Positions 3,912 through 64,000 are shown, counted from the stretch's first letter. The stretch is DNA of 64,000 nucleotides from an uncultured Planctomycetales bacterium (GCA_964467905.1 CAYXSY010000005.1:9800-73799); one strand, 5' to 3'. Program-made: numbers and translations. The notes: a model not told the origin generated them from the letters alone.

Positions 3912-3940
3912 TTGACAATTGCTCGCATATATGGTAAATT
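3912..3940 (+). promoter_or_regulatory. sigma70-type promoter TTGACA-N17-TAAATT directly abutting the bamD start
   Basis: ttgaca lies at 3912-3917, followed by a 17-nt spacer and taaatt at 3935-3940. The ATG of the signal peptide is at 3949, only 8 nt after the -10 element. Confidence 0.5.
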
Positions 3941-3948
3941 TGGTTACT

Positions 3949-30216: not shown

Positions 30217-30267
30217 GAATATCTTTTGCAGTTGCACGGTGTTTTTAAGCACGGCAAGGAGAATTGC

Positions 30268-36034: not shown

Positions 36035-36868
36035 TTGGAGAAAAGAAGTATCATAAGTATAGACCATAATAAATGTAATGGCTGCGGTTTATGTATCCCA
36101 AACTGTCCGGAAGGCGCTATCCAGATTATAGATAAAAAGGCGCATCTGGTTAGTGACTTATTTTGTGACGGCCTAGGCGCTTGTATCGGGCATTGCCCGC
36201 AAGGTGCAATTACTATTGAAGAGAGGCCTGCCCAGGAGTATAGCGAGAAGAAAGTCATGGAGAATATTGTAAAGCACGGTAAAAACGTTATCTTAGCCCA
36301 CCTCAAGCATCTTAAAGACCATAAACAGAACGAATACTTAAAACAGGCTTTGGGATATTTAAAAGAGAATAATATAGACATTAATATAGAAAACAATTCA
36401 GATGCTAATGTGCACGTTCATGGCGGTTGCCCGGGATCTAAAATAATGGACTTAAGGAACCATAAAAAAGCCGAAGTTGCGAGGGGTGTTATGGATCAGG
36501 CTTCGCAATTAGGGCAGTGGCCTGTACAGCTTAAGCTTGTGCCTGTTTTGGCTCCTTATTTTGAGAATGCCGACCTTTTAATCGCAGCCGATTGCGTTCC
36601 TTTCGCGTATGCAGATTTTCACCAGCGGTTGCTTAAAGGAAAGATTTTGCTTGTTGGTTGCCCCAAATTAGATGATCTGGATTCTTATAAGGATAAAATT
36701 ACGCAGATTATAAAGAACAATAAGATACGCTCCGTTGTTTACGCGCATATGGAAGTACCTTGTTGTTTTGGTTTATTACCGATAATCAAAGAGGCTATTG
36801 CATCAACAGATAAAAACATTATCTTTTCTGAAGTTAATATTAGTATTACGGGAGAAAAGATTATATGA
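36035..36868 (+). CDS. 4Fe-4S dicluster domain protein with an uncharacterised C-terminal domain
   Basis: Two ferredoxin motifs are present (CNGCGLCIPNCP and CDGLGACIGHCP). It uses a TTG start 5 nt after an AGGAGG. The C-terminal half contains CVPF...GCPKLDD...VPCCFG. Confidence 0.7.
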   Translation: MEKRSIISIDHNKCNGCGLCIPNCPEGAIQIIDKKAHLVSDLFCDGLGACIGHCPQGAITIEERPAQEYSEKKVMENIVKHGKNVILAHLKHLKDHKQNEYLKQALGYLKENNIDINIENNSDANVHVHGGCPGSKIMDLRNHKKAEVARGVMDQASQLGQWPVQLKLVPVLAPYFENADLLIAADCVPFAYADFHQRLLKGKILLVGCPKLDDLDSYKDKITQIIKNNKIRSVVYAHMEVPCCFGLLPIIKEAIASTDKNIIFSEVNISITGEKII

Positions 36869-37222: not shown

Positions 37223-38515
37223 ATGTTTTGTTATCAGTGTGAACAAACAGCAGGCGGAAGCGGTTGCACAAAATTAGGTGTTTGCGGCAAGAATGAGGAT
37301 GTCCAAAGCTTGCAGGATTTATTATTATTTGGATTAAAAGGTATTGCTGCTTATGCGTATCATGCCCGCGAACTCGGTGCGCGCGATGAGGAAGTGGATA
37401 GTTTTATGCATGAAGCGCTTTTCAAAACGGTAACTAATGTGAGTTTTGATTTGAGCCAGCATCTTGATTTAGTCTTGAAGTGTGGCAGAGTTAATCTAAA
37501 AACTATGGAGCTTTTGGATAAGGCTCATACCGAGCGTTTCGGCAACCCTATTCCTACTCAGGTTTATATGGGTACCAAGAAGGGGCCGGGTATCCTTGTT
37601 ACAGGGCATGATTTGTTAGATTTATACGAGTTGCTTAAGCAGACTGAAGGCACGGGGATAAATATTTATACCCATTCAGAGATGTTGCCCGCACACGGAT
37701 ATCCTAAGCTCAAATCTTTTAAGCACCTGGTTGGAAATTACGGCGGTGCCTGGCAGGAGCAGAAGAAAGAATTCAATGAATTCAGCGGAGCGATACTAGC
37801 GACTACTAACTGCGTTTTAATCCCACCGGCAAATACTTATTTAGATAGGTTATTTACTATAGGTATTACCGGCGTTCCGGGAGCCGCTCATATTAAAAAC
37901 CGTGATTTTAAAGCCATTATTGAAAAAGCAAAATCATTGCCTTCTCTACAGGAGGTACCGGGTAAAACAATAATGACTGGTTTCCACCATGCGGCGATTC
38001 TTTCTTTGGCTGATAAAATCGTAGGGTTGGTAAAATCAGGTAAAATAAGGCATTTCTTTCTTATCGGCGGTTGTGATGGCGCAAAGCCGGGAAGAAACTA
38101 TTATACGGAGTTTGCAGAGCTTGTGCCTAAGGATTGTATAATTCTTACCCTTGCATGTGGTAAATACCGTTTTAATAAGCTTGATTTCGGAGAAATTGAA
38201 GGAATTCCGCGCTTATTGGATATTGGTCAGTGCAACAATGCCTATTCGGCAATACAGGTGGCCTTAGCGCTATCCAAGGTATTTAATTGTAGCGTCAATG
38301 ATCTGCCATTAACTTTGGTTTTATCATGGTTTGAGCAGAAGGCGGTGGCAATACTTTTGACATTGCTTGCTCTGGATATAAAAAACATACGTATTGGGCC
38401 TACTCCACCGGCATTCATCAGCCCGGGAGTATTTAAGGTTATCCAGGAGAGATACGGGTTAAAGTTAATCACTACGCCGAAGGATGACTTGGCAGATATT
38501 CTAAAGACAAAGTAA
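37223..38515 (+). CDS. hcp: hybrid cluster protein (hydroxylamine reductase), short form
   Basis: The N-terminus MFCYQCEQTAGGSGCTKLGVCGK is the Hcp cubane-binding motif. Downstream blocks are GHDL, NYGGAWQ, LATTNC, GGCDG, ACGKYRF and GQCNNAYSA. At 430 aa it is shorter than the ~550-aa classical forms. Confidence 0.9.
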   Translation: MFCYQCEQTAGGSGCTKLGVCGKNEDVQSLQDLLLFGLKGIAAYAYHARELGARDEEVDSFMHEALFKTVTNVSFDLSQHLDLVLKCGRVNLKTMELLDKAHTERFGNPIPTQVYMGTKKGPGILVTGHDLLDLYELLKQTEGTGINIYTHSEMLPAHGYPKLKSFKHLVGNYGGAWQEQKKEFNEFSGAILATTNCVLIPPANTYLDRLFTIGITGVPGAAHIKNRDFKAIIEKAKSLPSLQEVPGKTIMTGFHHAAILSLADKIVGLVKSGKIRHFFLIGGCDGAKPGRNYYTEFAELVPKDCIILTLACGKYRFNKLDFGEIEGIPRLLDIGQCNNAYSAIQVALALSKVFNCSVNDLPLTLVLSWFEQKAVAILLTLLALDIKNIRIGPTPPAFISPGVFKVIQERYGLKLITTPKDDLADILKTK

Positions 38516-42122: not shown

Positions 42123-42281
42123 ATGGAAAAATACAGATGTACGGTTTGTGGTTATGTTTATGATCCGGCAGTAGGCGACCCGGATCACGGGGTAAATGCC
42201 GGGACTAAATTCGTAGATTTGCCTGCGGATTGGGTTTGTCCGGAATGCGGCGTGGGTAAAGACATGTTCGAGAAGGTTTAA
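42123..42281 (+). CDS. rub: rubredoxin (52 aa; below the ORF-track cutoff)
   Basis: The sequence [52 protein letters not shown] carries both CxxCG knuckles. An RBS (aaggag) is present. The stop overlaps the next ATG (TAATG). Confidence 0.95.
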
Positions 42282-43147
42282 TGATTATGAGCAGACAAGT
42301 TAAATTTAAAGGCTCTCCTCTTACTTTGGTTGGCAGATATTTAAGCCGGGGAATAGTGGCTCCGGATTTTAAGGTTATATCGGCTGAATTAAAAGAAGTT
42401 TGTTTATCAGAGTTTAAGGATAAAATCAAGATTGTAAACTTTTTCCCTTCCCTTGATACGCCGGTATGCGATTTGCAGGTAAAGGAATTTAATAAGAAAG
42501 CAGCCGGTATTTCTGCGGATATAGTTGTAATCGGAATAAGCAAAGATTTACCTTTTGCCCAGGCAAGATTCTGCCATGAAAACGAAATTAAGAATGAGTT
42601 AGTATTTTCAGATTATAGATATTCTTCCTTTGGCATCAACTACGGAGTTTTAATTAAAGAACTTAATCTTCTCGCACGCGGAGTAGTTATTATCGACAGT
42701 AATAACATTTTAAGATACATCCAAATAGTAGATGAAGTAACGAATGCGGTTAATTATGAGCAAGCACTTAAAGAGCTGGAGGCTGTAATTAGTGCCACAG
42801 CGTCTTTAAGGCCACAAGAAGAGCTGTCTTCTCACTGCAAGCCTTGCGAAGGGCAAGTTGCTTCTTTGCCTCAAGATAAGATCAATAGATTAATCGCCGC
42901 CTACCGCGGTTGGGAACTTATTGACGGTAAAAAAATAGTGAAGGAATTTAAGTTTAAAGATTTTATCGAGGCAAAATATTTTATCGATCTTATTTCGGTT
43001 ATCGCTGAAGAGCAAGGGCATCACCCTACCATAACCGTAATTTATAATAAAGTCAGGCTAACGCTTAGCACTCACGCAGCAGGAGGCCTGACTGATAACG
43101 ATTTTATTATGGCTAAATTAATTGATGGATTAGGATATGCCGGTTAA
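42281..43147 (+). CDS. fusion protein: thiol peroxidase (Tpx, atypical 2-Cys) + pterin-4a-carbinolamine dehydratase (PCD/DCoH)-like domain
   Basis: The Tpx part is FFPSLDTPVCDLQ (peroxidatic Cys) and ARFCHENEI (resolving Cys). After an ~25-aa linker comes HCKPCEG...YRGWELIDGKKIVKEFKFKDFIEAKYFIDLISVIAEEQGHHPTITVIYNKVRLTLSTHAAGGLTDNDFIMA, a typical PCD. Confidence 0.8.
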   Translation: MIMSRQVKFKGSPLTLVGRYLSRGIVAPDFKVISAELKEVCLSEFKDKIKIVNFFPSLDTPVCDLQVKEFNKKAAGISADIVVIGISKDLPFAQARFCHENEIKNELVFSDYRYSSFGINYGVLIKELNLLARGVVIIDSNNILRYIQIVDEVTNAVNYEQALKELEAVISATASLRPQEELSSHCKPCEGQVASLPQDKINRLIAAYRGWELIDGKKIVKEFKFKDFIEAKYFIDLISVIAEEQGHHPTITVIYNKVRLTLSTHAAGGLTDNDFIMAKLIDGLGYAG

Positions 43148-50567: not shown

Positions 50568-50666
50568 CTGTAGTAGGCAGCACACCAGCGCATCATTTAG
50601 CGCCGGGTGTATATTGCTCTTATGGTTGTTATCCTCTTTGGGCAACATAACAACAGGAGGATAAAT

Positions 50667-51467
50667 ATGTTTAGTAGTATAAAAGAAGCGCAAATCAGCC
50701 GGGCGATTGTCGGTGAGTTTAGTAAATGGTTTGAGGATTATATCATTTGCGATGTGATTATTGTTGGCGGCGGGCCAAGCGGATTGATGGCAGCTAGAGA
50801 TTTGGCCAGCAGTGGATTAAAAACGCTGGTTATCGAAAGCAACAATTATATCGGAGGCGGTTTTTGGGTAGGGGGTTATTTTATGAATACCCTGACTTTT
50901 CGCTCTCCGGCAGAAGAGATCCTGGACGAGCTGAGTATCCCATATAGAGAATTAGAGAAAGGTCTTCTGGTTGCTGATGGGCCGAGTGCTTGCTCTAAGC
51001 TTATTTTTGAAGCTTGCCAAGCAGGGGTTAAAATATTAAATCTTACCAAATTTGACGATGTCATCTTGCGGAACAAGCGTGTGGAAGGAGCAGTTATCAA
51101 TTGGGCCGCAGTTTCTGCTTTGCCACGGCAAATTACCTGTGTTGACCCTATTGCTATTGAATCCAAGATAGTAATTGATGCTACTGGACATGACGCTTGG
51201 GTAGCCAGGAGCCTGGAGAAGAGGGGTTTGTTAAAGATACAACATTTTGGACCTATGGATGTTAATTCTTCAGAGGATGCAGTGGTAGAAATGACAGGAG
51301 AGATTTTCCCGGGATTGTTGGTTTGCGGAATGAGTGCAGCTACAGCTTATGGTTTGCCACGCATGGGCCCGACCTTCTCTGGCATGCTTTATTCAGGAAG
51401 AAAGGCAGCTAAAGTAGCAATGGGTATTCTTGAAAAGAAGTCCGAATTAATCGGCAGCCTATCTTAG
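50667..51467 (+). CDS. thi4: thiazole synthase Thi4 family, second divergent paralogue (riboswitch-controlled)
   Basis: The motifs DVIIVGGGPSGLMAARDL, GGGFWVGG, VIDATGHDAWV and LPRMGPTFSGMLYSG are present. A strong RBS (caggagg) serves the ATG at 50667. The track GTG at 50607 lies in the leader. Confidence 0.85.
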   Translation: MFSSIKEAQISRAIVGEFSKWFEDYIICDVIIVGGGPSGLMAARDLASSGLKTLVIESNNYIGGGFWVGGYFMNTLTFRSPAEEILDELSIPYRELEKGLLVADGPSACSKLIFEACQAGVKILNLTKFDDVILRNKRVEGAVINWAAVSALPRQITCVDPIAIESKIVIDATGHDAWVARSLEKRGLLKIQHFGPMDVNSSEDAVVEMTGEIFPGLLVCGMSAATAYGLPRMGPTFSGMLYSGRKAAKVAMGILEKKSELIGSLS

Positions 51468-51578: not shown

Positions 51579-52772
51579 ATGACATTTGGCAGAAAACATA
51601 AAGTTTATCTTGATCATAATGCTACTACGCCGCTCCATCCGGAAGTAAAGAAGGCTATTCTTGAAGCTGCGGAGGTGTTCGGTAACCCCTCTAGCCTCCA
51701 TGAGTTTGGCAGGACCGCGCATAAACTGCTGGAGGATTCACGCGAAATAATCGCTAATTTTATCGGAGCGCACTCTGATGAAGTTATTTTTGTAGGTAGC
51801 GGATCAGAGGCAAATAATACGATAGTAAATCTGCTTTCCTGCCCCGGGGCATCCAGCTGCACACATCCTATTTTTGGTAAAGTAAGAAATCAGATTATTA
51901 CTACTAAGATAGAGCATCCTTGTGTCTTAGAGTCTGTTGCCTGTGCACAAGGCAGGGGCATTAATGTTACCTATATAGGCGTTGATAAATACGGAAAAAT
52001 AGATTTTGAAGAATTAAAAAGCAACTTATCCGAGAACACAGCTTTTATTTCGGTAATGATGGCAAATAATGAAATCGGTACCATCCAGGATATTAAGAAA
52101 ATTACCCAGCTTGCCCACGAGCACGGCATATTAATGCATACCGACGCAGTGCAGGCAGTAGGCAAGATTCCGGTTGATGTAAATGATCTCGGAGTTGATT
52201 ATCTTTCTTTCTCGGCACATAAGATTTACGGGCCCAAAGGAGTAGGTGCTCTTTATGTACGTAAGGGTAGCTCTTTTTGTCCTTTTATCCGCGGTGGACA
52301 TCAGGAAAAGGGTAGGCGCGCAGGGACTGAAAATACCTTAGGTGTCGCCGGCTTTGCCAAGGCTATCCAGATGCGAAAAGTTGAAATGGATGATGAAGCA
52401 AGAAGATTACTAGTCTTAAAAAATAAACTTAAGGATGGCATTACTAAAAATATCACTGATATTGAATTTAACGGTCATCCTATTGATTGTCTTGTCACTA
52501 CCTTAAATGTCTCTTTTAACGGTGCAGAAGGAGAATCGATCTTGCTTTATTTGGATCTAGAAGGTATTGCTGTGTCTACCGGCTCTGCCTGTGCTTCTGG
52601 TTCACTTGATCCCTCACACGTACTTATTGCTACAGGGATTTCTGCAGGGCAGGCGCATGGCTCAGTTAGGATGAGCTTAGGTAGAGACACGAATGAAAAA
52701 GATATCGACTATGTAATTAAAACCTTAACCAAGGTTATAGAGAAAGTAAGAAAGATATCTAGCGTTAGCTAA
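51579..52772 (+). CDS. nifS: cysteine desulfurase NifS/IscS
   Basis: The motif YLDHNATTP, the PLP-Lys motif SAHKIYGPKG and the catalytic loop STGSACASGS are present. Confidence 0.9.
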   Translation: MTFGRKHKVYLDHNATTPLHPEVKKAILEAAEVFGNPSSLHEFGRTAHKLLEDSREIIANFIGAHSDEVIFVGSGSEANNTIVNLLSCPGASSCTHPIFGKVRNQIITTKIEHPCVLESVACAQGRGINVTYIGVDKYGKIDFEELKSNLSENTAFISVMMANNEIGTIQDIKKITQLAHEHGILMHTDAVQAVGKIPVDVNDLGVDYLSFSAHKIYGPKGVGALYVRKGSSFCPFIRGGHQEKGRRAGTENTLGVAGFAKAIQMRKVEMDDEARRLLVLKNKLKDGITKNITDIEFNGHPIDCLVTTLNVSFNGAEGESILLYLDLEGIAVSTGSACASGSLDPSHVLIATGISAGQAHGSVRMSLGRDTNEKDIDYVIKTLTKVIEKVRKISSVS

Positions 52773-52781: not shown

Positions 52782-53393
52782 ATGGATAAACCTGTTGATT
52801 GGCTGTATACCGAGAAAGTAAAAGATCATTTCATGCATCCGCGCAATCTCCTGATGGATGAGTCGAGCTTTGCCGCTGATGGCCGGGGTGTAATCGGAAA
52901 TATTAAATGCGGTGATGAGATGGTAGTATTAATTAAGGTAGATAAAGAAAAAGGGGTTATTACCGATTGCAAGTGGAAAACCTACGGCTGCGCCAGCGCA
53001 ATCGCCTCGACTTCGGTTCTATCGGAAATGGCAATAGGTAAAACCTTGGATCAGGCCTATCAGATTTCTTCACATGATATTGCCCGCGAACTGGGAAGCT
53101 TGCCTGAACATAAGATCCATTGTTCGGTGTTAGGGGATAAGGCGCTTAGGGCAGCCATTGAAGATTATTACCAGCGTAATGGGATGACTGATAAGATTAA
53201 AAGTCAAAAAGAGCACATTATCTGCCAGTGTTTAGGGATTACCGATGCTGATATAGAGAATGCAGTATTGGAAGGAGTAAGGGATTATCTCCAGCTACAA
53301 GAACATACCAAAATTGGCACTGTCTGCGGCAAATGCAAAGATAAATCAATCCAAGTCATGGAGCAGTATATCCAGAAGTATTTCAATAAATAA
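52782..53393 (+). CDS. nifU: NifU-like Fe-S scaffold (IscU-type N-domain + BFD-like [2Fe-2S] domain; lacks the C-terminal Nfu domain)
   Basis: The scaffold Cys residues are in GNIKCGDEM, TYGCASAIAS and HCSVLG. The BFD-like motif is ICQCLGITD...GTVCGKCK. Confidence 0.85.
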   Translation: MDKPVDWLYTEKVKDHFMHPRNLLMDESSFAADGRGVIGNIKCGDEMVVLIKVDKEKGVITDCKWKTYGCASAIASTSVLSEMAIGKTLDQAYQISSHDIARELGSLPEHKIHCSVLGDKALRAAIEDYYQRNGMTDKIKSQKEHIICQCLGITDADIENAVLEGVRDYLQLQEHTKIGTVCGKCKDKSIQVMEQYIQKYFNK

Positions 53394-53480: not shown

Positions 53481-53756
53481 ATGCATCAGCATGCTACTCA
53501 TGAGGAACAATTAGAGTTTTTAAAGAAGATAGAAGGTCAGGTGCGCGGTATCGAAAGGATGATTACAGAAAAAAGATATTGCGTGGATATTATTACTCAA
53601 CTTTATTCTGTTATTGGTGCCCTGCGTAAGGTAAAAGACGGCATATTCAAGAAGCATATCGAAAGTTGTGTAGTCGGGGCGCTACAAGGAAGATCAGAAG
53701 CAGAGAAACAGAAAAAGATTTCCGAGGTTATGGAGCTTATTTCTAAGCTAAGGTGA
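53481..53756 (+). CDS. csoR: CsoR/RcnR family metal-sensing repressor (C-H-C ligand set, copper type)
   Basis: The block GQVRGIERMITEKRYCVDIITQLYSVIGALRKV...KKHIESC carries Cys, His and Cys at the expected ligand positions. The start is moved to 53481, because the track ATG at 53448 lies inside the promoter. Confidence 0.8.
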   Translation: MHQHATHEEQLEFLKKIEGQVRGIERMITEKRYCVDIITQLYSVIGALRKVKDGIFKKHIESCVVGALQGRSEAEKQKKISEVMELISKLR

Positions 53757-53773
53757 TCTATATAGAGGACAGG

Positions 53774-55045
53774 ATGGCAGCCTTATTCAAAAGTACTCTG
53801 AAGGTAGTGATTATATTAGGTGCGGTATTTTTGTTAAATAGATATGCTGCTGCGCAAAGTTCTTCTCAAGGCCTAACCAGTCTTATTGAAGAAGGTCTAA
53901 AGAATAATCCTCAGATTCAGGCTGCTTACAATAATTGGCAGGCTGCCAGATACAGAATAGCGCAGGTATCGAGTTTGCCGGATCCGATGGTAAACTATTC
54001 CTATTTCGGTGAAAATATAGAAACAAGGGTCGGACCGGAAAAAGATAAGTATGGAGTTTCTCAAAAAATTCCCTTTCCCGGTAAACTTGATCTTAAGGCA
54101 AAATCACAGATAAAGAATGCCCAAATGTTTAAGGAAGGCTATGAAGCGGCAAAGAGGGAGCTGATAAAGAATATTAAATTTACCTATTATGATATTTTCT
54201 GGATCGATAAAGCCATAGAAATAACCGAAAGCGAAAAGGCTATACTTGAGAATCTGGAACAAGCTGCAAGCAAGAGATATGAGACTAACCTTAGCCCTCA
54301 GCAGGATGTTATCAAAGCCCAGGTTGAGATTACCAAAATGATTAACAAGATTTTTGTTCTTGAAGAAAATAGGAATAATCTGGTGGCAAAGTTAAATAGT
54401 CTTCTGAATCGTCCCGAAGGTACACCTTTAGATAAGCTTGCATCATTTAAGCTAACCACTTTTGATTATGACAAACAGGGATTGGAGGAAATGGCTAAGC
54501 AATCACGCCAGGAATTATTGGCTGCGGGGCTTGCCGTCCAACGCGCAGAATACGAAAGGTCCCTGGCAAAATTAGATTATTTTCCCGATTTAACTCTCGG
54601 CTTCGATTATTTTAATATAGAAAGCGGCCATACTAATGCCCATAATGACGGCCAAGATGCCTGGTCCGGAACCATTGCTTTTAATGTCCCGCTTTGGTTC
54701 GGAAAATTGTCTGCTCAGTTAAAAGAGAAAAAGGCAATGCTTGAGGCGAGTAAAAATGATTACCAGAATATCGAAAATAGCGTTTCTTATGAGTTAGATG
54801 ATGTTTATTTCAAGATCAAAACCTATAAAGAAATAGTTTTACTCTATGAAACTGCGCTTATCCCTCAGACCGAACAGGCCTTTGATGCCGCTAAAACCGC
54901 CTATGAAACACAAAAGGTGGATTTCTTAAGTTGGTTAGATTCTGAGCGCGTGCTGTTACAGACCAGGCTTGCTTATTACAAATCGATAGTTGATTATGAA
55001 AAGTCTATTGCTTATCTGGAAAGAATAGTCGGCAGGGATTTATAA
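53774..55045 (+). CDS. TolC-family outer membrane efflux protein (CusC-like)
   Basis: It has a signal peptide (AALFKSTLKVVIILGAVFLLNRYAAAQ) and two OEP repeats. It is the first gene of an RND tripartite operon. Confidence 0.8.
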   Translation: MAALFKSTLKVVIILGAVFLLNRYAAAQSSSQGLTSLIEEGLKNNPQIQAAYNNWQAARYRIAQVSSLPDPMVNYSYFGENIETRVGPEKDKYGVSQKIPFPGKLDLKAKSQIKNAQMFKEGYEAAKRELIKNIKFTYYDIFWIDKAIEITESEKAILENLEQAASKRYETNLSPQQDVIKAQVEITKMINKIFVLEENRNNLVAKLNSLLNRPEGTPLDKLASFKLTTFDYDKQGLEEMAKQSRQELLAAGLAVQRAEYERSLAKLDYFPDLTLGFDYFNIESGHTNAHNDGQDAWSGTIAFNVPLWFGKLSAQLKEKKAMLEASKNDYQNIENSVSYELDDVYFKIKTYKEIVLLYETALIPQTEQAFDAAKTAYETQKVDFLSWLDSERVLLQTRLAYYKSIVDYEKSIAYLERIVGRDL

Positions 55046-55062
55046 TAGAAGAGGAGCCGTAA

Positions 55063-56253
55063 ATGAAGAAAAAGATAGCCTTTCTGATCCTAGTCCCGAT
55101 TTTTATTATTGCCGTAGCTGTTATTTTCTGGAAAACGGCTCAAAAACCAGAAGCTGCCATTTGGGGATCTTCGGATGGGGCAGACAAGAGCAGGCAGGCA
55201 GAGAATGATGGGACTAAGGCAAGAAAAATAATTTTTTATCGTAATCCAATGAATCCATCTATTACCTCTAAGGTCCCGGCAAAAGACCAGATGGGCATGG
55301 ATTACATTCCCGTTTATGAAGAGGAAGAGACAGTCGTAGCATCAGATCGGGTAATTAGCAAAGTAAAAATAAAGAAAGCAGAGGCACAGCTTGCAGACGT
55401 AGAGACGCAGCCTGTTGCCAAGGGCAGGCTCTATAAAGAAATCCGCACTGTGGGCAAGGTTGCTTATGACCCTGCTCTTACTATCGCCGAGGAGGAGTTT
55501 GTTTCAAGCTTAAAGGCTTACGATAAGATTAAGCAAGGAGATATTGCTGAAATAAAAGAAAGGGCAACCAATCTTGTTGATGCGGCAAAGAAAAAGCTTA
55601 TGTTGCTAGGTCTAAGCGAAGAGCAGATTGTTGAATTAGAAGATACCAGGCAGCTGCATTCAAATTTGGTCTTGCCTCAAAGTAAGATGTGGGTTTATGG
55701 AGAGTTATATGAATACGAGCTGGGTTGGGTAAAAAGAGGAGAGAAGGTAAAGATAACTACTTTGAGTCTCCCGGGTGAGGAATTCGAAGGGATAATTGCT
55801 TCTTTGAACCCTGTGCTTGATCCTAAGACACGCTCTGTTACCTTCCGCGTAGAAGTAGAAAACCCCGGATTAAAATTAAAGCCCGAAATGTATGTCGACG
55901 TGGATATCATGAGTGCTTACTTGGGTCCAGAGGGTCAAGAGGAGAACTTATTTATTCCCAAAAATGCAGTTTTGGATACAGGGAAAAGAAAGATTGTTTG
56001 GGTTGATAAAGGCGATGGAGAATACGAAGGTATAGAGGTGGCCGTTGGCCCAGAAGCCATATTTGAAAAAGATAATATGAAGATGAATGTTTATCCTGTG
56101 TTAAATGGGCTCAAAGAAGGTGTTTTAGTAGTTAGCAAAGCCAATTTTCTCATTGATTCTCAGAGTCAGATTTCCGGGGTGGCAGCTTCGGCTTATGGTG
56201 GAGCACTCGGTGCCGGAGATAAAGAAGTAAAAGGTGCTGGATCCGAAGATTAA
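55063..56253 (+). CDS. cusB: RND efflux periplasmic adaptor, CusB-like
   Basis: The N-terminal motif YRNPMNPSITSKVPAKDQMGMDYIPVY parallels the PM-x-P...M-x-M-D-L-x-P segment I recall from CusB. The lipoyl and beta-barrel MFP domains follow. Confidence 0.75.
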   Translation: MKKKIAFLILVPIFIIAVAVIFWKTAQKPEAAIWGSSDGADKSRQAENDGTKARKIIFYRNPMNPSITSKVPAKDQMGMDYIPVYEEEETVVASDRVISKVKIKKAEAQLADVETQPVAKGRLYKEIRTVGKVAYDPALTIAEEEFVSSLKAYDKIKQGDIAEIKERATNLVDAAKKKLMLLGLSEEQIVELEDTRQLHSNLVLPQSKMWVYGELYEYELGWVKRGEKVKITTLSLPGEEFEGIIASLNPVLDPKTRSVTFRVEVENPGLKLKPEMYVDVDIMSAYLGPEGQEENLFIPKNAVLDTGKRKIVWVDKGDGEYEGIEVAVGPEAIFEKDNMKMNVYPVLNGLKEGVLVVSKANFLIDSQSQISGVAASAYGGALGAGDKEVKGAGSED

Positions 56254-56274
56254 TATTCCCCAGAGGATAATAAT

Positions 56275-59200
56275 ATGATCAATAAGGTAATTGAGATATG
56301 TCTTAAGAACAGGTTTCTTGTGATTGCGACATTTGTCTTGGTTATCTTTTGGGGTTTCAATGCAATGGAAGAAACGCCAGTTGATGCCATCCCTGATATC
56401 GGAGAGCTGCAGGTTATAGTTTATGCTGATTGGCCAGGCAGGAGTCCTAGGGATGTAGAAGATCAGGTTATTTACCCATTAACTACTGGCCTCATGGGTA
56501 CGCCTAAAGTAAAAGTAGTGCGTTCTATTTCAAGCTTCGGTTTTGGCTTGGTTAATATGATCTTTAAAGAAGGGACAGATTTCTACTGGGCAAGAACCAG
56601 GGTTCTAGAAAGGCTTAATTTTGCCACTAAAGATATTCCGAAAGATACGGTTGTAACCTTAGGCCCGGATGCTACTGCTTTAGGTCAGATATTCTGGTAT
56701 ACGCTAGAGGGGAAAGGCTACAGTTTAGATGAACTGCGTTCAATCCAGGATTGGTATGTTCGTTATCAGCTTACCTCAGTTGAAGGGGTTGCAGAAGTTG
56801 CTTCGGTAGGGGGGTATGTCAAACAATACCAGATTGATATCGATCCCAACAAGCTTCTTGCCTATGATGTAAAACTAAACGAAGTAATCAATGCTGTCAG
56901 GCGTTCCAATATAGATGTGGGGGCTAAGGTATTTGAGGAGGCAGGACAAGAATTTATTGTCAGGGGCTTAGGATTTATAAAAAATATACCGGATATAGAG
57001 AATATTGTAGTAGGCAGTAAAAATGGCGTGCCTATTTATATTAAGAATATTGCTAATGTATCTTTAGGTCCGGAGTTCAGAAGAGGAGCCCTTGATAAAA
57101 ACGGCAAGGAAGTGACTGGTGGCGTGGTATTGATGCGTTATGGGCAGAATCCTCTTAGGGTTATCGAAAATGTAAAAAATAAAATAAAAGAGTTATCTGT
57201 TGGGCTCCCGCCCGGAGTAAAGATTGTTCCGTTTTATGACCGTACTGGGCTCATTGAGCGCGCCATAGGCACCTTAAAAACTGCTTTAACCCAGGAAATA
57301 ATTATTACGGTTTTTATTATTATTATTTTTCTCTTACATCTCTGGGGGAGTGTCGTAATTTCTATAGTTTTACCTATCGGCATCCTGATCGCCTTTATAT
57401 TAATGCGTTTAGTTGGGGTGGATGCCAATATTATGTCTCTGGGGGGCATTGCCATAGCTATCGGTGTAATGGTTGATTCAGGGTGTGTATTAGTTGAGAA
57501 TATCTATCGTAAGATTGCCGAAAGAAGAGAGGAAAAAAGAGTAAATAAGCTTCCTGCCGAAGAACGACTTAGTGTCTGTACTAGCGCAGCTCAGGAGGTA
57601 GGCAAGCCTGTTCTCTTTGCATTGTTGACGACTATAATTGGCTTTGTTCCCGTTTTTGTCTTAACCGGACAGGCGGGGAAACTTTTTAGGCCACTTGCCT
57701 TTACTAAGACATTTGCTATGGTGGGAGCAGCAATAATTGCGCTTACCTTAATGCCTACGCTTTGCTATCTTCTCTTAAAGGGAAGGCTGCGGCCGCTTGA
57801 CCAGAACAAAACAGCCAAGCTGCTCCATAAGATTTATAAGCCGATTATAGGTTGGTCGCTAATTCATAAGTCCAAGATAATCATTATTTCCATAGCTATA
57901 GTAATTTTAGGGCTTGTTTGTGGTTCATTAATGAAACAGGAATTTATGCCGCCTTTAAATGAAGGCGATCTTTTGTTCATGCCTGTGCTTTTGCCAGGGG
58001 CATCTTTAACTGAAGTCACAGAGATTGTTAAAAAACAAGATATCGTTATCAAGAATGATTTTCCTGATGAAATAGAATGGGCGGTAGGTAAGGTTGGGCG
58101 CGCAGAAACAGCAACCGATCCTGCCCCTGTGGTGATGATTGAAACAATAGTGCATCTTAAGGACAAGAAATACTGGCGCAAGGGGTTAACTCGCGAGAAG
58201 CTCATTCAAGAAATTCAGGAAAAGACGCGCATGCCGGGCGTTAGTCCGATTATGACCCAGCCGATTAGAAACAGAATCGATATGCTTGCTACGGGTATAC
58301 AGACGCCGGTGGGAATTAAAGTTTTTGGCCCTAATTTGAATAAGATTGTTGAAATTGCCTCAGAGATCGAAAAGATTGTTAGCAATGTTAAGGGGGCGGT
58401 AAGTCCATATGCAGAGAGAATTTCTAACCGGCCATATTTCGAGATAGAAATTGACCGGCAGCAAGCTGCAAGATACGGTTTGAAAGTTGAAGATATCCAG
58501 GATATCGTGATGACAGCAATAGGAGGTATGAACCTTACCACTACTGTTGAAGGTAGAGAACGTTATCCGGTAAGGGTAAGGTATTTAAGAGAGCTCAGGG
58601 ATAGTCCGGAGGCCTTGGAGAGGATTTTTGTCCCCACCCCTAAAGGAGAGCATATTCCTTTGGTGCAGTTAGCTAAGTTAAGAAAAGTCCCGGGTCCAGC
58701 GGTGATTAATTCCGAAAACACGCTTACCTACGCGCGTATTTTTGTCAATGTTAACCAGGAGAAAGTCGGCCTGATAGATTTTGTAAAAAATGCCCAAAAG
58801 GCGGTGCAGGATAAAATTAAGAGCAAAGAACTAGTGCTTCCTGCGGGTTACTTTATCAGCTGGTCTGGGCAGTTTGAATCAGAAATGGAATCAAGAAAGA
58901 GGCTCCTGCCTTCTTTATTGATAGCCCTTACGGTTATTCTTATTTTATTATATATGGCATTTAAGAAAGTGAGCACTCTTTTTATACTTTCGACTGGTCT
59001 GCCCGTTTCCTTGATGGGTGGCATTATCCTGCTTTATCTGCTTAATTTCAGGTTCTCAACTGCGGTATGGGTGGGATTTATCGCTTTGTTCGGAGTAGCT
59101 ACCGATAATGCAGTAGTATTGGTTGCTTTTTTAGATGATTTGTTCGCAAAAAAAGTTCCGCAGTCAGTGGAAGAGATACGTCAGACAGTTATCGCAGGTT

Positions 59201-59436
59201 GCCTTTTAAGGATCAGGCCGATTATGATGACAACCATGACCACGATCATTGCTCTTATCCCAGTTATGCTTTCTACCGGTACAGGCTCAGAAATCATGAA
59301 GCCCATGGCTTCTCCTACAGTCGGAGGCTTGGTTACTGCTACGTTATCAAACTTGCTTCTTGTGCCTTCATTGTATTGTTGGGTTAAAGAAAGGGCATTT
59401 GGCAAAGCGTTGGTAAAAGAAAAAAGGGGGATATAA
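56275..59436 (+). CDS. cusA: heavy-metal efflux RND transporter, CusA/CzcA family
   Basis: A 1053-aa, 12-TM RND protein. The TM4 motif GGIAIAIGVMVDSGCVLVENI resembles the CusA-type AIG-x-MVD. Confidence 0.85.
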   Translation: MINKVIEICLKNRFLVIATFVLVIFWGFNAMEETPVDAIPDIGELQVIVYADWPGRSPRDVEDQVIYPLTTGLMGTPKVKVVRSISSFGFGLVNMIFKEGTDFYWARTRVLERLNFATKDIPKDTVVTLGPDATALGQIFWYTLEGKGYSLDELRSIQDWYVRYQLTSVEGVAEVASVGGYVKQYQIDIDPNKLLAYDVKLNEVINAVRRSNIDVGAKVFEEAGQEFIVRGLGFIKNIPDIENIVVGSKNGVPIYIKNIANVSLGPEFRRGALDKNGKEVTGGVVLMRYGQNPLRVIENVKNKIKELSVGLPPGVKIVPFYDRTGLIERAIGTLKTALTQEIIITVFIIIIFLLHLWGSVVISIVLPIGILIAFILMRLVGVDANIMSLGGIAIAIGVMVDSGCVLVENIYRKIAERREEKRVNKLPAEERLSVCTSAAQEVGKPVLFALLTTIIGFVPVFVLTGQAGKLFRPLAFTKTFAMVGAAIIALTLMPTLCYLLLKGRLRPLDQNKTAKLLHKIYKPIIGWSLIHKSKIIIISIAIVILGLVCGSLMKQEFMPPLNEGDLLFMPVLLPGASLTEVTEIVKKQDIVIKNDFPDEIEWAVGKVGRAETATDPAPVVMIETIVHLKDKKYWRKGLTREKLIQEIQEKTRMPGVSPIMTQPIRNRIDMLATGIQTPVGIKVFGPNLNKIVEIASEIEKIVSNVKGAVSPYAERISNRPYFEIEIDRQQAARYGLKVEDIQDIVMTAIGGMNLTTTVEGRERYPVRVRYLRELRDSPEALERIFVPTPKGEHIPLVQLAKLRKVPGPAVINSENTLTYARIFVNVNQEKVGLIDFVKNAQKAVQDKIKSKELVLPAGYFISWSGQFESEMESRKRLLPSLLIALTVILILLYMAFKKVSTLFILSTGLPVSLMGGIILLYLLNFRFSTAVWVGFIALFGVATDNAVVLVAFLDDLFAKKVPQSVEEIRQTVIAGCLLRIRPIMMTTMTTIIALIPVMLSTGTGSEIMKPMASPTVGGLVTATLSNLLLVPSLYCWVKERAFGKALVKEKRGI

Positions 59437-59798
59437 TGGGAAAGTCATATTTAGTATTAGTAGGATTAATTGTAGTTTTTAGTTTAGTTATCTTAGATAA
59501 TAGCTACAGCGCGCAGAGTAATAATGAGAGTGATGACAAAAATGTTTCTCAAGAGAAAGCGGTAAATGTGGGGAATAAAATTTGTCCGGTTTCCGGAGAT
59601 AAGATAAATGAAAAAACAAAGGCCACCTATGAATACAAGGGTAGGGTTTATAATTTCTGTTGTCCAGCTTGTATTGAAGAATTCAAAAAATATCCCGAGA
59701 AATACATCAAGAAGATAGAGGATGAACTGCAGCAAAATACCGAAGAGAAAATCAAGCCAGCCCCTCATATGCAGATGAATAGAGAAGAAGAACAATAG
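59436..59798 (+). CDS. exported YHS/TRASH-domain metal-binding protein (occupies the CusF position)
   Basis: It has a signal peptide (MGKSYLVLVGLIVVFSLVILDNSYSAQ). The YHS motif is CPVSGDKINEKTKATYEYKGRVYNFCCPACIEEFKKYPEKY. The start overlaps the cusA stop. Confidence 0.75.
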   Translation: MGKSYLVLVGLIVVFSLVILDNSYSAQSNNESDDKNVSQEKAVNVGNKICPVSGDKINEKTKATYEYKGRVYNFCCPACIEEFKKYPEKYIKKIEDELQQNTEEKIKPAPHMQMNREEEQ

Positions 59799-59841
59799 CA
59801 TTAAGAATTATTACTCACCCTGAAATAAATAAAGATTTTTC

Positions 59842-59869
59842 TTGACAGATTGTTATTTTCTTGTATACT
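59842..59869 (+). promoter_or_regulatory. promoter TTGACA-N16-TATACT followed by the palindrome ctcta-N9-tagag
   Basis: ttgaca lies at 59842-59847 and tatact at 59864-59869. The inverted repeat ctctactatatcaatagag (59868-59886) overlaps the end of the -10 element and the likely transcription start. It may be an Rrf2 operator. Confidence 0.5.
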
Positions 59870-59902
59870 CTACTATATCAATAGAGATTATAGAGAAAGA
59901 CT

Positions 59903-60343
59903 ATGCATATCACCTATAAGGGCGATTATGCCCTAAAGACAATATTAGATTTATCCGTGCATTATGGAAGGGGGCCGGTGACTATCCATGAGCTTGCTCG
60001 CCGCGCAGATATTCCTACAAAATTCTTAGAGCAGATACTGCTTGATTTAAAGCGCGGAGGCTTTGTGCAAAGTAAGCGCGGTAAAGTTGGCGGATATCTT
60101 TTGGCCAAGAAGCCATCACAGATAAGATTAGGAGAGGTGATTCGTTTTATCGACGGGCCGATAGAGCCAGTCAGCTGTGTAAATAAGAATTACCGTGGCT
60201 GTGTAGATGTCCCCGGCTGTGTCTTAAGAAAGGTATGGATTAAGGTCGCTGAGGCCACTTCTAGTATCGTAGATAATATAAGTTTTGAAGATTTAGCCAA
60301 GAAGGCAAGAGGCCCTAAGGAGGTCTTGGTTTATCAAATATGA
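59903..60343 (+). CDS. Rrf2 family transcriptional regulator (CymR/IscR-like)
   Basis: The N-terminus [31 protein letters not shown] is present, with three Cys residues in [18 protein letters not shown]. It heads the cysK cluster. Confidence 0.85.
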
Positions 60344-61260
60344 AAATAGCTAAAGACATTACAGAATTAATCGGTAATACTCCCCTAGTGCGTTTAAATA
60401 AACTTACACAAGGTTGTCTTGCTACCGTGGTAGCAAAACTAGAATTTTATAATCCTTGTTCTTCTATCAAGGATAGGATTGGTTTGGCTATGATAGAGGC
60501 CGCAGAAAAAACAGGTCGGATAAATAAGGATACGATATTTATCGAGCCGACTTCGGGGAACACAGGTATTGCTTTGAGTTTTGTTTGTGCGGTTAAGGGT
60601 TATAAATTGATTTTGACTATGCCGGAAACTATGAGTGTTGAGCGCAGGAAGTTATTAAGTGCATTTGGTGCCGAAATTGTACTTACCCCTGGATCGGAAG
60701 GGATGAGTGGGGCGGTGCGTAAGGCCGAAGAATTAGCCAAAAGCAATAAGCGCTTTGTGATGTTGCAACAATTTAAAAACCCGGCTAATCCTGAGATACA
60801 TCGCCGTACTACTGCCAACGAAATATGGGTTGATACAGACGGTAAAGTTGATATTTTGGTTGCTGGCGTAGGTACAGGCGGAACGATTACAGGAATAGCC
60901 GAGGCGCTTAAGAAAAAGAAACCGGGTTTTCAAGCAATAGCAGTTGAACCAAAAGATTCTCCTGTTTTATCCGGAGGCAAAGCGGGTCCTCATAAGATAC
61001 AGGGTATAGGCGCTGGGTTTGTGCCGGATATCTTAAATACAAAAATAATCGATGAGATTATTCAGGTTGCCAATGAAGATGCAATTGCTACGGCAAGGGC
61101 TCTGGCGAAAGAAGAAGGCATATTGGCGGGTATTTCATCGGGCGCCGCGGTTTTTACGGCTTTGAAGGTAGCCCAGAGAAAGGAAAATAGGGATAAGCTT
61201 ATTGTGGTAATATTGCCCGATACAGGGGAGCGTTATCTAAGCACGGAGTTATTCACTTAA
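60340..61260 (+). CDS. cysK: cysteine synthase A (O-acetylserine sulfhydrylase)
   Basis: The motif [10 protein letters not shown], the PLP-Lys motif NPCSSIKDR, and the blocks [19 protein letters not shown] and ISSGAA are present. Confidence 0.9.
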
Positions 61261-61278
61261 ATCAAGGAGGGTTTTAAA

Positions 61279-61500
61279 ATGAGAGAAAAAGTCGAAGCAG
61301 CATTAAATAAAATTCGTCCTATGCTACAGGCAGATGGTGGTAATATTGAGCTTGTCGATATTAGTAGCGATGGAGTAGTCAAGCTAAAACTTACAGGAGC
61401 CTGCGGATGTTGTCCTATGTCACAAATGACGCTTAAAATGGGAGTTGAGCGTATATTGAAACAGGAAGTGCCGGAAGTAAAAGAAGTTGTAGCTGTTTAA
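61279..61500 (+). CDS. NifU C-terminal (Nfu-type) domain protein
   Basis: A 73-aa protein with the pattern IRPMLQADGGNIELVDISSDGVVKLKLTGACGCCPMSQMTLK. Confidence 0.85.
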   Translation: MREKVEAALNKIRPMLQADGGNIELVDISSDGVVKLKLTGACGCCPMSQMTLKMGVERILKQEVPEVKEVVAV

Positions 61501-61530
61501 CAATAGGTTTGCTTGAAGAAAGGTTTAGAA

Positions 61531-62733
61531 ATGAGAACAATCAAAGAGATAAATCAAAAGATAAAAAAGGGCGAAGCAGTAGTTGTTACTGCCGAAGAGA
61601 TTATTGATTTAGTAGATAAGAAGGGGATTAAGAAAGCGGCAGAAGAAGTTGACGTAGTTACAACCGGGACCTTTGGCCCGATGTGTTCATCAGGTGCCTA
61701 CTTTAATATAGGTCATTCCAAGCCGCGCATAAAATTAGGAGGCGGTGTTTGTAAGTTAAATGATATCCCTGTCTACACCGGGTTTGCCGCTGTGGATATT
61801 TATCTGGGTGCTACAGCTATGCCGGATGATGATCCGCGTAATAAAGTCTTTCCCGGAGAGTTCAAATACGGCGGTGCGCATGTAATTCAGGATTTGGTTG
61901 CCGGACGTGATGTTCGCCTTGAGGCAACGGCTTATGGTACGGATTGTTATCCACGCAAAAAATTAGATACCTATATTAATATAAAGGATCTTAATGAGGC
62001 GGTGCTTTTTAATATCCGTAACTGCTATCAGAATTATAACGTAGCGGTAAATCTTTCAGACAAGATTATCTATACTTATATGGGCACATTAAAGCCGAAT
62101 TTAGGCAATGCTAATTATTGTTCGGCGGGGCAACTTTCCCCGCTTTTAAAGGACCCATGCTATAAGACTATCGGTATCGGCACTAAGATATTCTTAGGAG
62201 GCGGTATTGGTTATGTGGCTTGGCAGGGAACCCAGCACAATCCTTCTGTAAAAAGAAAGGATAACGGTATACCTCAGGCACCGGCTGGTACTTTAGCTGT
62301 AATCGGAGATTTAAAACAGATGAAAGCCGAATGGCTGCGTGGGGTGAGTATGACTGGATACGGGGTAACTTTAACCGTAGGGATAGGAGTGCCTATTCCT
62401 ATTTTAAATGAGGAAATCTTAAAGTTTGCCGCGGCCAAGGATAAAGAGATTTTTACCCAGATTGTTGATTATAGTAGTGATTATCCGAATATGATTTCCC
62501 GCAGCCTCGGAGAAGTTAGCTACGCAGATTTAAAATCAGGCAAGATTAAAGTTGAAGGTAAGGATGTGCCAACAGGAAATCTCTCAAGTTATTCTAAGGC
62601 GCGCGAGATTGCCGAAGAGTTAAAGTATTGGATTAAAAAAGGTGATTTTTCGCTGACCGAAGCCGTTGCGCCTTTGCCGGGTCCAGAATCAGGATATTCT
62701 TTTAAGGCACTTAAAGAAAGGCCGATAGTTTAA
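61531..62733 (+). CDS. COG1900/DUF39 homocysteine biosynthesis protein (sulfide-dependent, methanogen type)
   Basis: The N-terminus is MRTIKEINQKIKKGEAVVVTAEEI...VDVVTTGTFGPMCSSGA. The protein is about 400 aa and is followed by a NIL-ferredoxin gene, the pairing known from methanogens. Confidence 0.7.
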   Translation: MRTIKEINQKIKKGEAVVVTAEEIIDLVDKKGIKKAAEEVDVVTTGTFGPMCSSGAYFNIGHSKPRIKLGGGVCKLNDIPVYTGFAAVDIYLGATAMPDDDPRNKVFPGEFKYGGAHVIQDLVAGRDVRLEATAYGTDCYPRKKLDTYINIKDLNEAVLFNIRNCYQNYNVAVNLSDKIIYTYMGTLKPNLGNANYCSAGQLSPLLKDPCYKTIGIGTKIFLGGGIGYVAWQGTQHNPSVKRKDNGIPQAPAGTLAVIGDLKQMKAEWLRGVSMTGYGVTLTVGIGVPIPILNEEILKFAAAKDKEIFTQIVDYSSDYPNMISRSLGEVSYADLKSGKIKVEGKDVPTGNLSSYSKAREIAEELKYWIKKGDFSLTEAVAPLPGPESGYSFKALKERPIV

Positions 62734-62756
62734 GTTAAGAACAAAGGGGAGATAAA

Positions 62757-63164
62757 ATGATTTCTAAAAAAATAGTCCTGCATTTCCCGCATCGCTTAGT
62801 CGATCAGCCGATCGTATATAAGCTGGTCAAGGATTTTGATTTAAAATTCAATATCCTCAAGGCTTATGTAACGCCTCAGGAAGAAGGGCTGATGGTGCTA
62901 GAGCTAAGCGGCAAGAAGGAAGAATTCGAGAAAGGCATGCAATATTTAGAGTCTTGCGGGGTGAGGATTCAACCTTTAAGCCAGGATGTAATACGTAATG
63001 AGGCTAAGTGTACCGATTGCGGAGTTTGTGTGCCGATTTGTCCGACTGGGGCGTTAGTAGTTGATCCCTTAACGCGCAAGGTACATTTCTACGATAATAA
63101 ATGTATTGCCTGCGAGCTTTGTGTAAAAGTTTGCCCTACCCAGGCCATGGAAGTGCATTTTTAG
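62757..63164 (+). CDS. NIL domain + 2x[4Fe-4S] ferredoxin protein (partner of COG1900)
   Basis: The N-terminal NIL-like block is LHFPHRLVDQPIVYKLVKDFDLKFNILKAYV. The ferredoxin motifs are CTDCGVCVPICP and CIACELCVKVCP. Confidence 0.75.
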   Translation: MISKKIVLHFPHRLVDQPIVYKLVKDFDLKFNILKAYVTPQEEGLMVLELSGKKEEFEKGMQYLESCGVRIQPLSQDVIRNEAKCTDCGVCVPICPTGALVVDPLTRKVHFYDNKCIACELCVKVCPTQAMEVHF

Positions 63165-63179
63165 ATAGATGATATCCGG

Positions 63180-63965
63180 ATGAGCAAATTAGATAAACTG
63201 AAGAAGATATTAAAGGGCATGGGTTCCGTGCTTATCGCTTATTCGGGAGGGGTAGACAGCACTTTTTTATTAAAAGTAGCTTTTGATGTTTTAGGCAATA
63301 GAGCACTGGCAGTTACCGCAAAATCACCTACCTATCCGCAAGAAGAATTAGATTCAGCCATAAAAATAGCAGCCGCTATCGGCAGCAGGCATATTTTGGT
63401 TAGAACGAATGAATTCTCCGATAACAAATTCCTTGTTAATTCATCGCAAAGGTGTTATTTTTGTAAGAAAGGGCTTTTTGCTATCTTAAAAAAGATAGCA
63501 ATGGAAAAAGGCTTTCGCTACATTGTCGAAGGAAGCACATTGTCGGATACAAAAGATTTCCGCCCCGGTAATAGGGCAAAAAAGGAATTTAAAATCCGCT
63601 CTCCTTTGGTGGAAGCCGGTTTTACCAAGCCGGATGTGCGCAGGGCAAGCAAAGCCATAGGATTAGATACCTGGAATAAGCCGCCCCTGGCTTGTTTAGC
63701 ATCTAGAATCCCCTACGGCAGGAAAATAACAGTATCTTTACTGAAAAAAATAGAAAAAGGTGAGTCATCCTTAAGAAGTATTGGTTTTTCTCAAATACGT
63801 TTGCGTAGCTACGATGATATATGCCGTATAGAAGTGGATAAAAAAGAGCTTACAAAAGTTATACATAAGCGCAAAGCAATAGTTTCTGAATTGAAAAAAA
63901 TAGGCTATAAATATATAACCGTTGATTTAGAGGGGTATCGCACAGGGAGCATGAATTTAGCTTAA
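63180..63965 (+). CDS. larE: LarE-family PP-loop ATP-dependent sulfurtransferase, three-Cys (Fe-S cluster) subtype
   Basis: The PP-loop is AYSGGVDSTFLL. The motifs RCYFCKK and PLACLASRIPYG supply CxxC plus a third Cys. Confidence 0.7.
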   Translation: MSKLDKLKKILKGMGSVLIAYSGGVDSTFLLKVAFDVLGNRALAVTAKSPTYPQEELDSAIKIAAAIGSRHILVRTNEFSDNKFLVNSSQRCYFCKKGLFAILKKIAMEKGFRYIVEGSTLSDTKDFRPGNRAKKEFKIRSPLVEAGFTKPDVRRASKAIGLDTWNKPPLACLASRIPYGRKITVSLLKKIEKGESSLRSIGFSQIRLRSYDDICRIEVDKKELTKVIHKRKAIVSELKKIGYKYITVDLEGYRTGSMNLA

Positions 63966-63967
63966 CT

Positions 63968-64000
63968 ATGCAGGATAAAATTATTTCTTTTCTTAAAGGC
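63968..64000 (+). CDS. 3'-truncated ORF of unknown identity (MQDKIISFLKG...)
   Basis: An ATG lies 2 nt after the larE-like stop, and the frame runs open to the window edge. The fragment is too short to identify. If the LarE call is right, a LarB-like gene would be expected here, but that is speculation. Confidence 0.3.
   Translation, partial: MQDKIISFLKG

Follow-up and report, generated by a model that had tools for sequence, protein, structure and literature searches.

A putative Rrf2-controlled sulfide-assimilation operon of Omnitrophota type with a predicted [4Fe-4S] LarE near its end

Homocysteine can be made from aspartate semialdehyde and sulfide by a route that depends on a COG1900 (DUF39) protein and a ferredoxin with a NIL domain, for which there is genetic proof in Desulfovibrio and an inference for Dehalococcoides (PMC5764234, PMC4045070). 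The genes concerned are MA1821/MA1822 in Methanosarcina and DvMF_1464/DvMF_0262 in Desulfovibrio; the Desulfovibrio pathway also requires COG2122, and the published route needs no ATP-dependent activation of a carboxylate (PMC5764234). LarE, the PP-loop sulfur insertase of nickel-pincer nucleotide (NPN) synthesis, carries a three-cysteine motif in most of its homologues, and this Fe-S type is common and biochemically characterised (PMC9283937; PDB 8CNZ), with a cysteine desulfurase supplying the sulfur in vitro (PMC9283937). Here we describe a locus in which genes of both kinds lie in a row. It occupies the end of a 64,000-nt stretch of DNA from an uncultured Planctomycetales bacterium (GCA_964467905.1, CAYXSY010000005.1:9800-73799; hereafter the window) and encodes, in order, an Rrf2-family regulator, the O-acetylserine sulfhydrylase CysK, the Fe-S carrier Nfu, a COG1900 protein (HcyBio), a NIL-ferredoxin (NIL-Fd), LarE and the beginning of BirA (Table 1). 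We think it likely that this is an Rrf2-controlled sulfide-assimilation operon, of a type found in Omnitrophota, in which a conventional [4Fe-4S] LarE is co-located with cysteine-desulfurase and Fe-S supply. The COG1900/NIL-Fd pathway of bacteria and the Fe-S type of LarE are both already published, and the finding is mostly ordinary; the initial annotation of the window had called the cluster archaeal-style and its combination of genes striking in a bacterium, but the route is not peculiar to archaea, as the Desulfovibrio genetics shows.

The window shares with Methanosarcina and Desulfovibrio a full-length PF01837 protein immediately followed by a NIL domain joined to a double [4Fe-4S] ferredoxin, and its owner is probably, as they are, a sulfide-using anaerobe. 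It differs in that CysK, Nfu and an Rrf2 regulator are encoded in the same operon as the pair, whereas the three pathway genes of Desulfovibrio are dispersed, going by the locus tags in PMC5764234. The start of HcyBio, previously placed at a TTG (61513), is almost certainly the ATG at 61531, since M[RK][TS]IKEIN opens every orthologue. MA1821 has a conserved cysteine that forms a persulfide; in HcyBio, numbered from that ATG, four cysteines (C52, C74, C139 and C197) are invariant among eight orthologues. Among 80 metagenome loci collected around HcyBio, 49 could be evaluated for the order of the genes that follow it, and NIL-Fd comes next in 43 of these.

All six open reading frames (ORFs) upstream of birA lie on the plus strand at the positions given in the initial annotation, and profile searches confirmed the identity that it had proposed for each. 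They are closely packed, with successive gaps from the Rrf2 gene to larE of -4 (the first 4 nt of cysK are the last 4 of the Rrf2 gene), 18, 30, 23 and 15 nt, and birA begins 2 nt past the larE stop, so that the operon extends past the end of the window. A single near-consensus promoter, matching at 11 of 12 positions, is found in 59400-64000, and the first base of its -35 box is the coordinate (59842) from which the locus had originally been drawn. No terminator-like site was detected on the plus strand of the same interval; between NIL-Fd and larE, in particular, there is no terminator, and a weak promoter-like match (9 of 12, at 63069) is of the kind expected at the background rate. An Rfam scan of the operon region for a riboswitch or leader gave no match at E <= 0.1. 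With one promoter, no internal terminator and no gap above 30 nt, the earlier view of the locus as one operon without a transcript break before larE holds.

The palindrome CTCTA-N9-TAGAG lies across the -10 box and what is probably the transcription start. Promoter and palindrome are both kept upstream of the Rrf2 orthologues at four loci (L002, L005, L007 and L071) whose Rrf2 proteins are only 64-94% identical, in the form of the footprint TATACTCTACTA-N5-TAATAGAGATTATAGAG, while the flanking DNA has diverged. Conserved as a phylogenetic footprint amid diverging DNA, the palindrome, at which the initial annotation had suggested testing for Rrf2 binding, is a credible operator and the presumed Rrf2 site.

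The regulator itself passes the cutoff of the Rrf2 superfamily profile TIGR00738 (120 against 73 bits) and falls below the equivalog cutoffs for CymR (99.6 against 195), IscR (93.2 against 207.6), NsrR (52 against 182) and RirA (53.5 against 193). After its winged helix it carries three cysteines, C92, C100 and C106 (C-x7-C-x5-C), which are conserved in five orthologues, and this suggests an Fe-S-type regulator, presumably cluster-binding, that belongs to no named subfamily. An Rrf2 regulator heads a cysteine, desulfurase and thiolation (MnmA) cluster in the cymR-yrvO(iscS)-mnmA genes of Bacillus subtilis and in the IscR-controlled isc operons. The B. subtilis cluster resembles the backbone Rrf2-CysK-...-NifS-(NifU)-...-MnmA that we find in Omnitrophota (see below). 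The window regulator differs from CymR, which has no cluster ligands, in its cysteine triad, and the window operon goes beyond the cymR and isc clusters in its HcyBio/NIL-Fd, LarE and BirA modules.

Table 1. Features of the operon and of the nifS-nifU pair upstream of it, in window coordinates.
Feature	Position	Strand	Details
NifS	51579..52772	+	Read from translation; about 6.5 kb upstream of operon
NifU	52782..53393	+	Read from translation; about 6.5 kb upstream of operon
Sigma-70-type promoter	59842..59869	+	TTGACA 59842-59847, 16-nt spacer, TATACT 59864-59869
Operator-like palindrome CTCTA-N9-TAGAG	59868..59886	.	Presumed Rrf2 site; second TAGAG at 59891-59895
Rrf2-family winged-helix regulator	59903..60343	+	PF02082, 127 bits
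CysK, O-acetylserine sulfhydrylase (cysteine synthase A)	60340..61260	+	TIGR01139, 484.5 bits against cutoff 350.95
Single-domain Nfu Fe-S carrier	61279..61500	+	73 aa, GACGCCP motif; PF01106, 103 bits
COG1900/DUF39 protein HcyBio	61531..62733	+	PF01837, 522 bits, covering all 349 profile positions
NIL domain with 2x[4Fe-4S] ferredoxin (NIL-Fd)	62757..63164	+	PF09383 and Fer4 families
LarE, predicted PP-loop sulfur insertase of [4Fe-4S] type	63180..63965	+	TIGR00268
birA, 5' end (bifunctional biotin ligase/repressor)	63968..64000	+	MQDKIISFLKG, 11 codons

We compared LarE with the LarEs of 80 loci taken from species-representative genomes of many phyla (LarE 42-57% identical), 24 of which have larB and/or larC nearby; the lar neighbours were identified by profile (LarB by NF033503, 286 bits; LarC by TIGR00299). 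The window protein matches TIGR00268 over its full length (326.8 bits; cutoff 150), and in the sequences of the Protein Data Bank it matches the LarEs of L. plantarum (LpLarE, 5UDQ, 167 bits, 36% identity) and M. maripaludis (MmLarE, 8CNZ, 81 bits, 32% identity). Its PP-loop reads S22-G-G-V-D-S27; neither the clade of its closest relatives (L002-L010, L020, L023 and L071; hereafter the window clade) nor the larB/larC-linked LarEs show any variation at S, G, G, D and S, the remaining position being variable. The CxxC plus cysteine noticed in the initial annotation is indeed that of the Fe-S type: C92 and C95 align to the CxxC of 8CNZ (W97 and A100 in LpLarE), and C172 aligns to the third cysteine of 8CNZ, one residue past Cys176 of LpLarE. 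The third cysteine of T. maritima LarE is likewise shifted by one residue, and Ser180, Arg212 and Arg214 of LpLarE are the proposed binders of the phosphate of P2CMN, the mononucleotide of pyridinium-3,5-biscarboxylic acid (PMC9283937). The equivalents of these binders, S175, R207 and R209, are found in 12 of 12 LarEs of the window clade and in all 24 of the larB/larC-linked LarEs. The window LarE thus has in common with those of T. maritima (PMC9283937) and M. maripaludis (8CNZ) the SGGxDS loop, the CxxC...C triad and the phosphate-binding serine and two arginines, and it differs from them in its setting, an operon for cysteine, homocysteine and Fe-S functions, and in two residues that we discuss below.

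Conservation extends well beyond these motifs. When the alignment positions that are at least 90% conserved among the 24 larB/larC-linked LarEs are taken together (57 columns), the window clade retains 53 of them, and the identity of the window LarE to these proteins (median 47%) is no lower than their identity to one another (46%). In a neighbour-joining tree the window clade is nested among the larB/larC-linked LarEs, and the two experimentally studied LarEs fall outside all of them. Most likely, to judge from its residues, the protein is a genuine P2CMN sulfur insertase. The suggestion that it might act on a substrate outside NPN synthesis finds nothing in the sequence that favours it, the P2CMN phosphate binders and nearly all conserved positions being kept.

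Several observations weigh against a conventional LarE at this locus. The tree that places it among the larB/larC-linked proteins is unbootstrapped. A cysteine at position 215 is present in 12 of 12 LarEs of the window clade and in none of 77 other sequences, its column (Ala220 in LpLarE) holding alanine in 23 of the 24 larB/larC-linked LarEs, and in most members of the clade Tyr211 replaces the usual histidine (His216 in LpLarE). Both residues lie on a strand beside the phosphate-binding arginines, and they could mark a functional shift; Cys215 might bind the cluster as a ligand or relay a persulfide, or it might be neutral. The 64-kb window yielded neither larB nor larC, either with hidden Markov models (20 LarB and 14 LarC neighbours) or with tblastn (best E = 0.08), nor within flanks of up to 10 kb around about 90 loci of the window type. 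In addition, a comparison of NCBI accession blocks revealed no metagenome-assembled genome (MAG) shared between 11 accessions of window-type LarE and 18 of Omnitrophota LarB, a comparison of low power, since its LarBs reached down only to 61% identity with a single query. Matching the lengths of the longest contigs between the LarE and LarB hits, also a weak test, brought up no contig common to both.

The absence of larB and larC from the immediate surroundings is nevertheless normal for LarE loci, 56 of the 80 diverse loci having neither gene within 10 kb. LarB is frequently encoded in Omnitrophota, with at least 15 matches named as such at NCBI (61-100% identity), and in one Omnitrophota locus (L088) larE and larB adjoin. 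In about 15% of the genomes surveyed, larB, larC and larE occur without larA (PMC11796402), and new families of NPN-dependent enzymes are still turning up (PMC13524815). An NPN pathway in Omnitrophota would accordingly be no surprise. On our reading, we expect larB and larC to lie elsewhere in the genome.

We also note that the gene after larE was one place where larB or larC might have been sought. The 11-codon fragment at the edge of the window, which was all that the initial annotation had seen after larE, is the beginning of birA: an identical contig of 2.7 kb (L001) extends the ORF to 139 aa, including a helix-turn-helix and the biotin-ligase motif GRGRLGRSW, the extended ORF matches the BirA models NF008846 and TIGR00121/TIGR00122, and a full-length BirA stands at the corresponding position in L002-L008. 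An immediately downstream larB or larC is thereby ruled out.

An alternative that takes Cys215 as its mark is that the LarE of this clade has been recruited away from NPN synthesis, either to donate or relay sulfur, with use of ATP, to the COG1900 enzyme, replacing COG2122, or to make a thiocarboxylate on some other substrate. The clade-specific Cys215 and Tyr211 and the lack of larB and larC near any clade member speak for it, and there is a precedent, as cited in PMC13524815, in that searches anchored on LarE have led to a pincer cofactor other than NPN, namely NPAD. On the other hand, the serine and two arginines for a mononucleotide phosphate are kept along with nearly all conserved LarE positions, the protein is as similar to larB/larC-linked LarEs as members of the family usually are to one another, and the published homocysteine pathway does not require a carboxylate to be activated with ATP (PMC5764234).

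The gene that follows NIL-Fd bears on the same question. Where HcyBio is at least 79% identical to that of the window, larE comes directly after NIL-Fd in 24 of the 27 loci that could be evaluated; below 79% it does so in only 3 of 22. The window has no COG2122 homologue in its 64 kb, and two distant relatives, L159 (3772-4530) and L161 (3943-4680), have in this very slot a protein of the NF003323/PRK04334 family (313-318 bits). This family is probably UPF0280/COG2122, which in the DUF39 pathway is the third of the factors. Both facts speak for a LarE in the role of COG2122, which the Desulfovibrio pathway requires (PMC5764234). The slot is, however, variable: in other loci that have no larE it holds CysE (L141, L142, L147 and L153), adenosine 5'-phosphosulfate/3'-phosphoadenosine 5'-phosphosulfate reductase (L146), ThiF (L154) or NifS. 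Moreover, LarE and HcyBio each occur alone within the lineage. Three members of the window LarE clade (L009, L020 and L023) have the order Nfu-LarE-NifS-BirA with no HcyBio within 10 kb, and four loci with a close HcyBio (L106, L111, L116 and L138) have no larE. Taking both sides together, we regard recruitment of this LarE into homocysteine synthesis as very unlikely, and return to a conventional LarE in a sulfide-assimilation operon as the reading to be preferred.

The wider neighbourhood supports that reading. The closest named relatives of the window LarE are from MAGs of Candidatus Omnitrophota, and the order (Rrf2)-CysK-Nfu-HcyBio-NIL-Fd-LarE-(NifS)-BirA, whose conservation the initial annotation had left as a matter to be checked, recurs in many Omnitrophota contigs with LarEs 54-81% identical to that of the window, although the outer flanks differ. 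Rrf2 is missing from some of these contigs, and in L003 and L004 CysK is missing too. NifS follows larE directly in most relatives (TIGR03402, 568-589 bits; cutoff 531), with IscU after it in one, so that an adjoining cysteine desulfurase, matching the in vitro sulfur donor of T. maritima LarE, is the usual companion. Nfu, which is directly 5' of HcyBio in the window, is directly 5' of LarE in relatives that have no HcyBio. Since LarE is found without HcyBio in the LarE clade, and HcyBio without LarE in close loci, the HcyBio/NIL-Fd pair and LarE are separable modules on a backbone of Rrf2, CysK, Nfu, NifS, NifU, BirA, MnmA and NadA, and the stable unit is CysK-(Nfu)-HcyBio-NIL-Fd. HcyBio and NIL-Fd stand beside larE only in Omnitrophota-type loci of the 80-locus LarE scan. 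The linkage between LarE and the homocysteine genes, which had seemed striking at first, is therefore lineage-specific and separable in both directions, and the partners that LarE keeps across phyla are Nfu, NifS, NifU, MnmA, CysK and Rrf2. We found no literature linking COG1900 with LarE or covering Lar genes in Omnitrophota.

It might be argued that the adjacency has no functional meaning at all, larE and birA being part of a long inherited block of gene order that is read through from the upstream promoter. Synteny does extend beyond any plausible pathway: in L003-L008 the genes after NifS are, in the same order, those for BirA, a TonB-dependent receptor, MnmA, NadA and a pseudouridine synthase, and we know of no link between BirA and sulfur amino acids. 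Yet larE is found beside NifS, NifU, MnmA, CysK or Rrf2 in unrelated phyla as well. Saganbacteria (L011) and WOR-1 (L021), which form a sister clade, have LarE-Rrf2-NifS-NifU-MnmA-NadA, and larE stands beside CysK, MnmA and/or NifS in MAGs of Proteobacteria and in Binatia, WOR-3, Bacteroidota, Bacillota and other Omnitrophota. In the 80-locus set as a whole, 17 larE genes lie with sulfur or Fe-S genes and 24 with larB and/or larC, with no overlap between the two groups, and 39 lie with neither. Such recurrence in unrelated phyla favours selection over common descent, relatives differ in what flanks the block, and the tight gaps around larE and birA (2-15 nt) together with the lack of terminators suggest that the two genes are truly co-expressed. 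An inherited block devoid of functional meaning is accordingly unlikely, if somewhat less so than the recruitment discussed above.

In several relatives among L003-L008, NAD synthetase (NadE) is encoded just upstream and quinolinate synthase (NadA) just downstream of the conserved block (for example at 2969-4648 and 13954-14874 of L005). Nicotinic acid adenine dinucleotide (NaAD) is the substrate of LarB, and these neighbours may be a faint link to nicotinate nucleotides or a coincidence.

The window and its closest relative, L002, depart from the usual arrangement in that no nifS follows larE. The window nevertheless has nifS and nifU, the latter for a scaffold protein, upstream of the operon (Table 1), and its NifS is 46-50% identical to the NifS proteins that follow LarE in the relatives. 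The interval between NifU and the operon (53753-59798) encodes an outer-membrane factor, a CusB-like adaptor, a 1053-aa RND (resistance-nodulation-division) pump, all as in CusCBA-type efflux, and a YHS-domain protein. This interval resembles a rearrangement, or the insertion of a metal-efflux module into a block of sulfur and Fe-S genes.

How might the operon work as a sulfide-assimilation unit? In the scheme that we favour, CysK would convert sulfide into cysteine, while the COG1900 enzyme, as the sulfur-incorporating component, and NIL-Fd, as its reductive partner, would make homocysteine from aspartate semialdehyde and sulfide; Nfu would carry Fe-S clusters. Rrf2 would probably sense Fe-S or sulfur status and repress the single promoter through the palindrome over its -10 box. 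At the end of the operon larE would be co-transcribed with birA, and LarE would adenylate the carboxylates of P2CMN, its presumed substrate, and exchange them for sulfur carried on the cluster's open iron, as a step towards NPN. LarE would share with the rest of the operon a line of supply, from cysteine through the cysteine desulfurase NifS to Nfu and NifU, and would do no joint work with the homocysteine enzymes. That LarE requires both an Fe-S cluster and sulfur supplied by a cysteine desulfurase could thus explain where its gene lies.

Other parts of the window carry genes that may be of related interest. Two encode Thi4-like thiazole synthases (31954-32727 and 50607-51467), both reading, by eye, DATGHD, which we take to sit where yeast THI4 has its sacrificial cysteine, and the pair is in sequence consistent with the sulfide-dependent, non-suicidal type. 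With these two genes and nifS and nifU present, the theme of sulfide use and Fe-S-mediated sulfur chemistry originally suggested for the window is upheld. At 29224-30216 there is a 330-aa PP-loop protein whose N-terminal part resembles ThiI and MnmA only weakly, every score being far under its cutoff. Immediately 3' of it, at 30226-31275, lies the gene for a radical SAM enzyme of AmmeMemoRadiSam type (TIGR04337, 341 bits). What by eye looks like a second Rrf2-family regulator (35623-36033) is followed by a ferredoxin-domain protein (36035-36868; weak profile matches) and then by an ORF (37223-38515) that by eye resembles a hybrid-cluster protein, a set that may be a unit for nitrosative or oxidative stress. 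We also note an apparent fusion at 42281-43147 of an N-terminal thiol peroxidase (Tpx/AhpC-like) with a C-terminal domain like pterin-4a-carbinolamine dehydratase, a pair of Pfam domains that recurs in one gene of L005 (969-1826), and, at 60-2980, two large ORFs for proteins that look secreted, the second of which (1604-2980) is extremely rich in cysteine, with repeated CCP- and CxxC-like spacing.

Lastly, the locus has a bearing on how gene neighbourhoods are read. In lineages with long conserved gene blocks it is risky to take function from adjacency, and the present case is a caution in that respect. If the LarE of this clade had in truth been recruited, it would be a missing sulfur-delivery part of the poorly understood COG1900 pathway and would give the LarE fold a second function. 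If the ordinary reading is true, the value is more modest: in Omnitrophota the COG1900 route to homocysteine would be grouped with CysK and Nfu and controlled by an Rrf2 regulator of Fe-S type, whose operator is clear and conserved. Donation of sulfur from a desulfurase to LarE has so far been seen only in vitro, with E. coli IscS (PMC9283937), and on that same reading the recurrent company of larE and nifS would provide comparative-genomic support for a NifS-type cysteine desulfurase as the in vivo sulfur donor of the [4Fe-4S] LarE.

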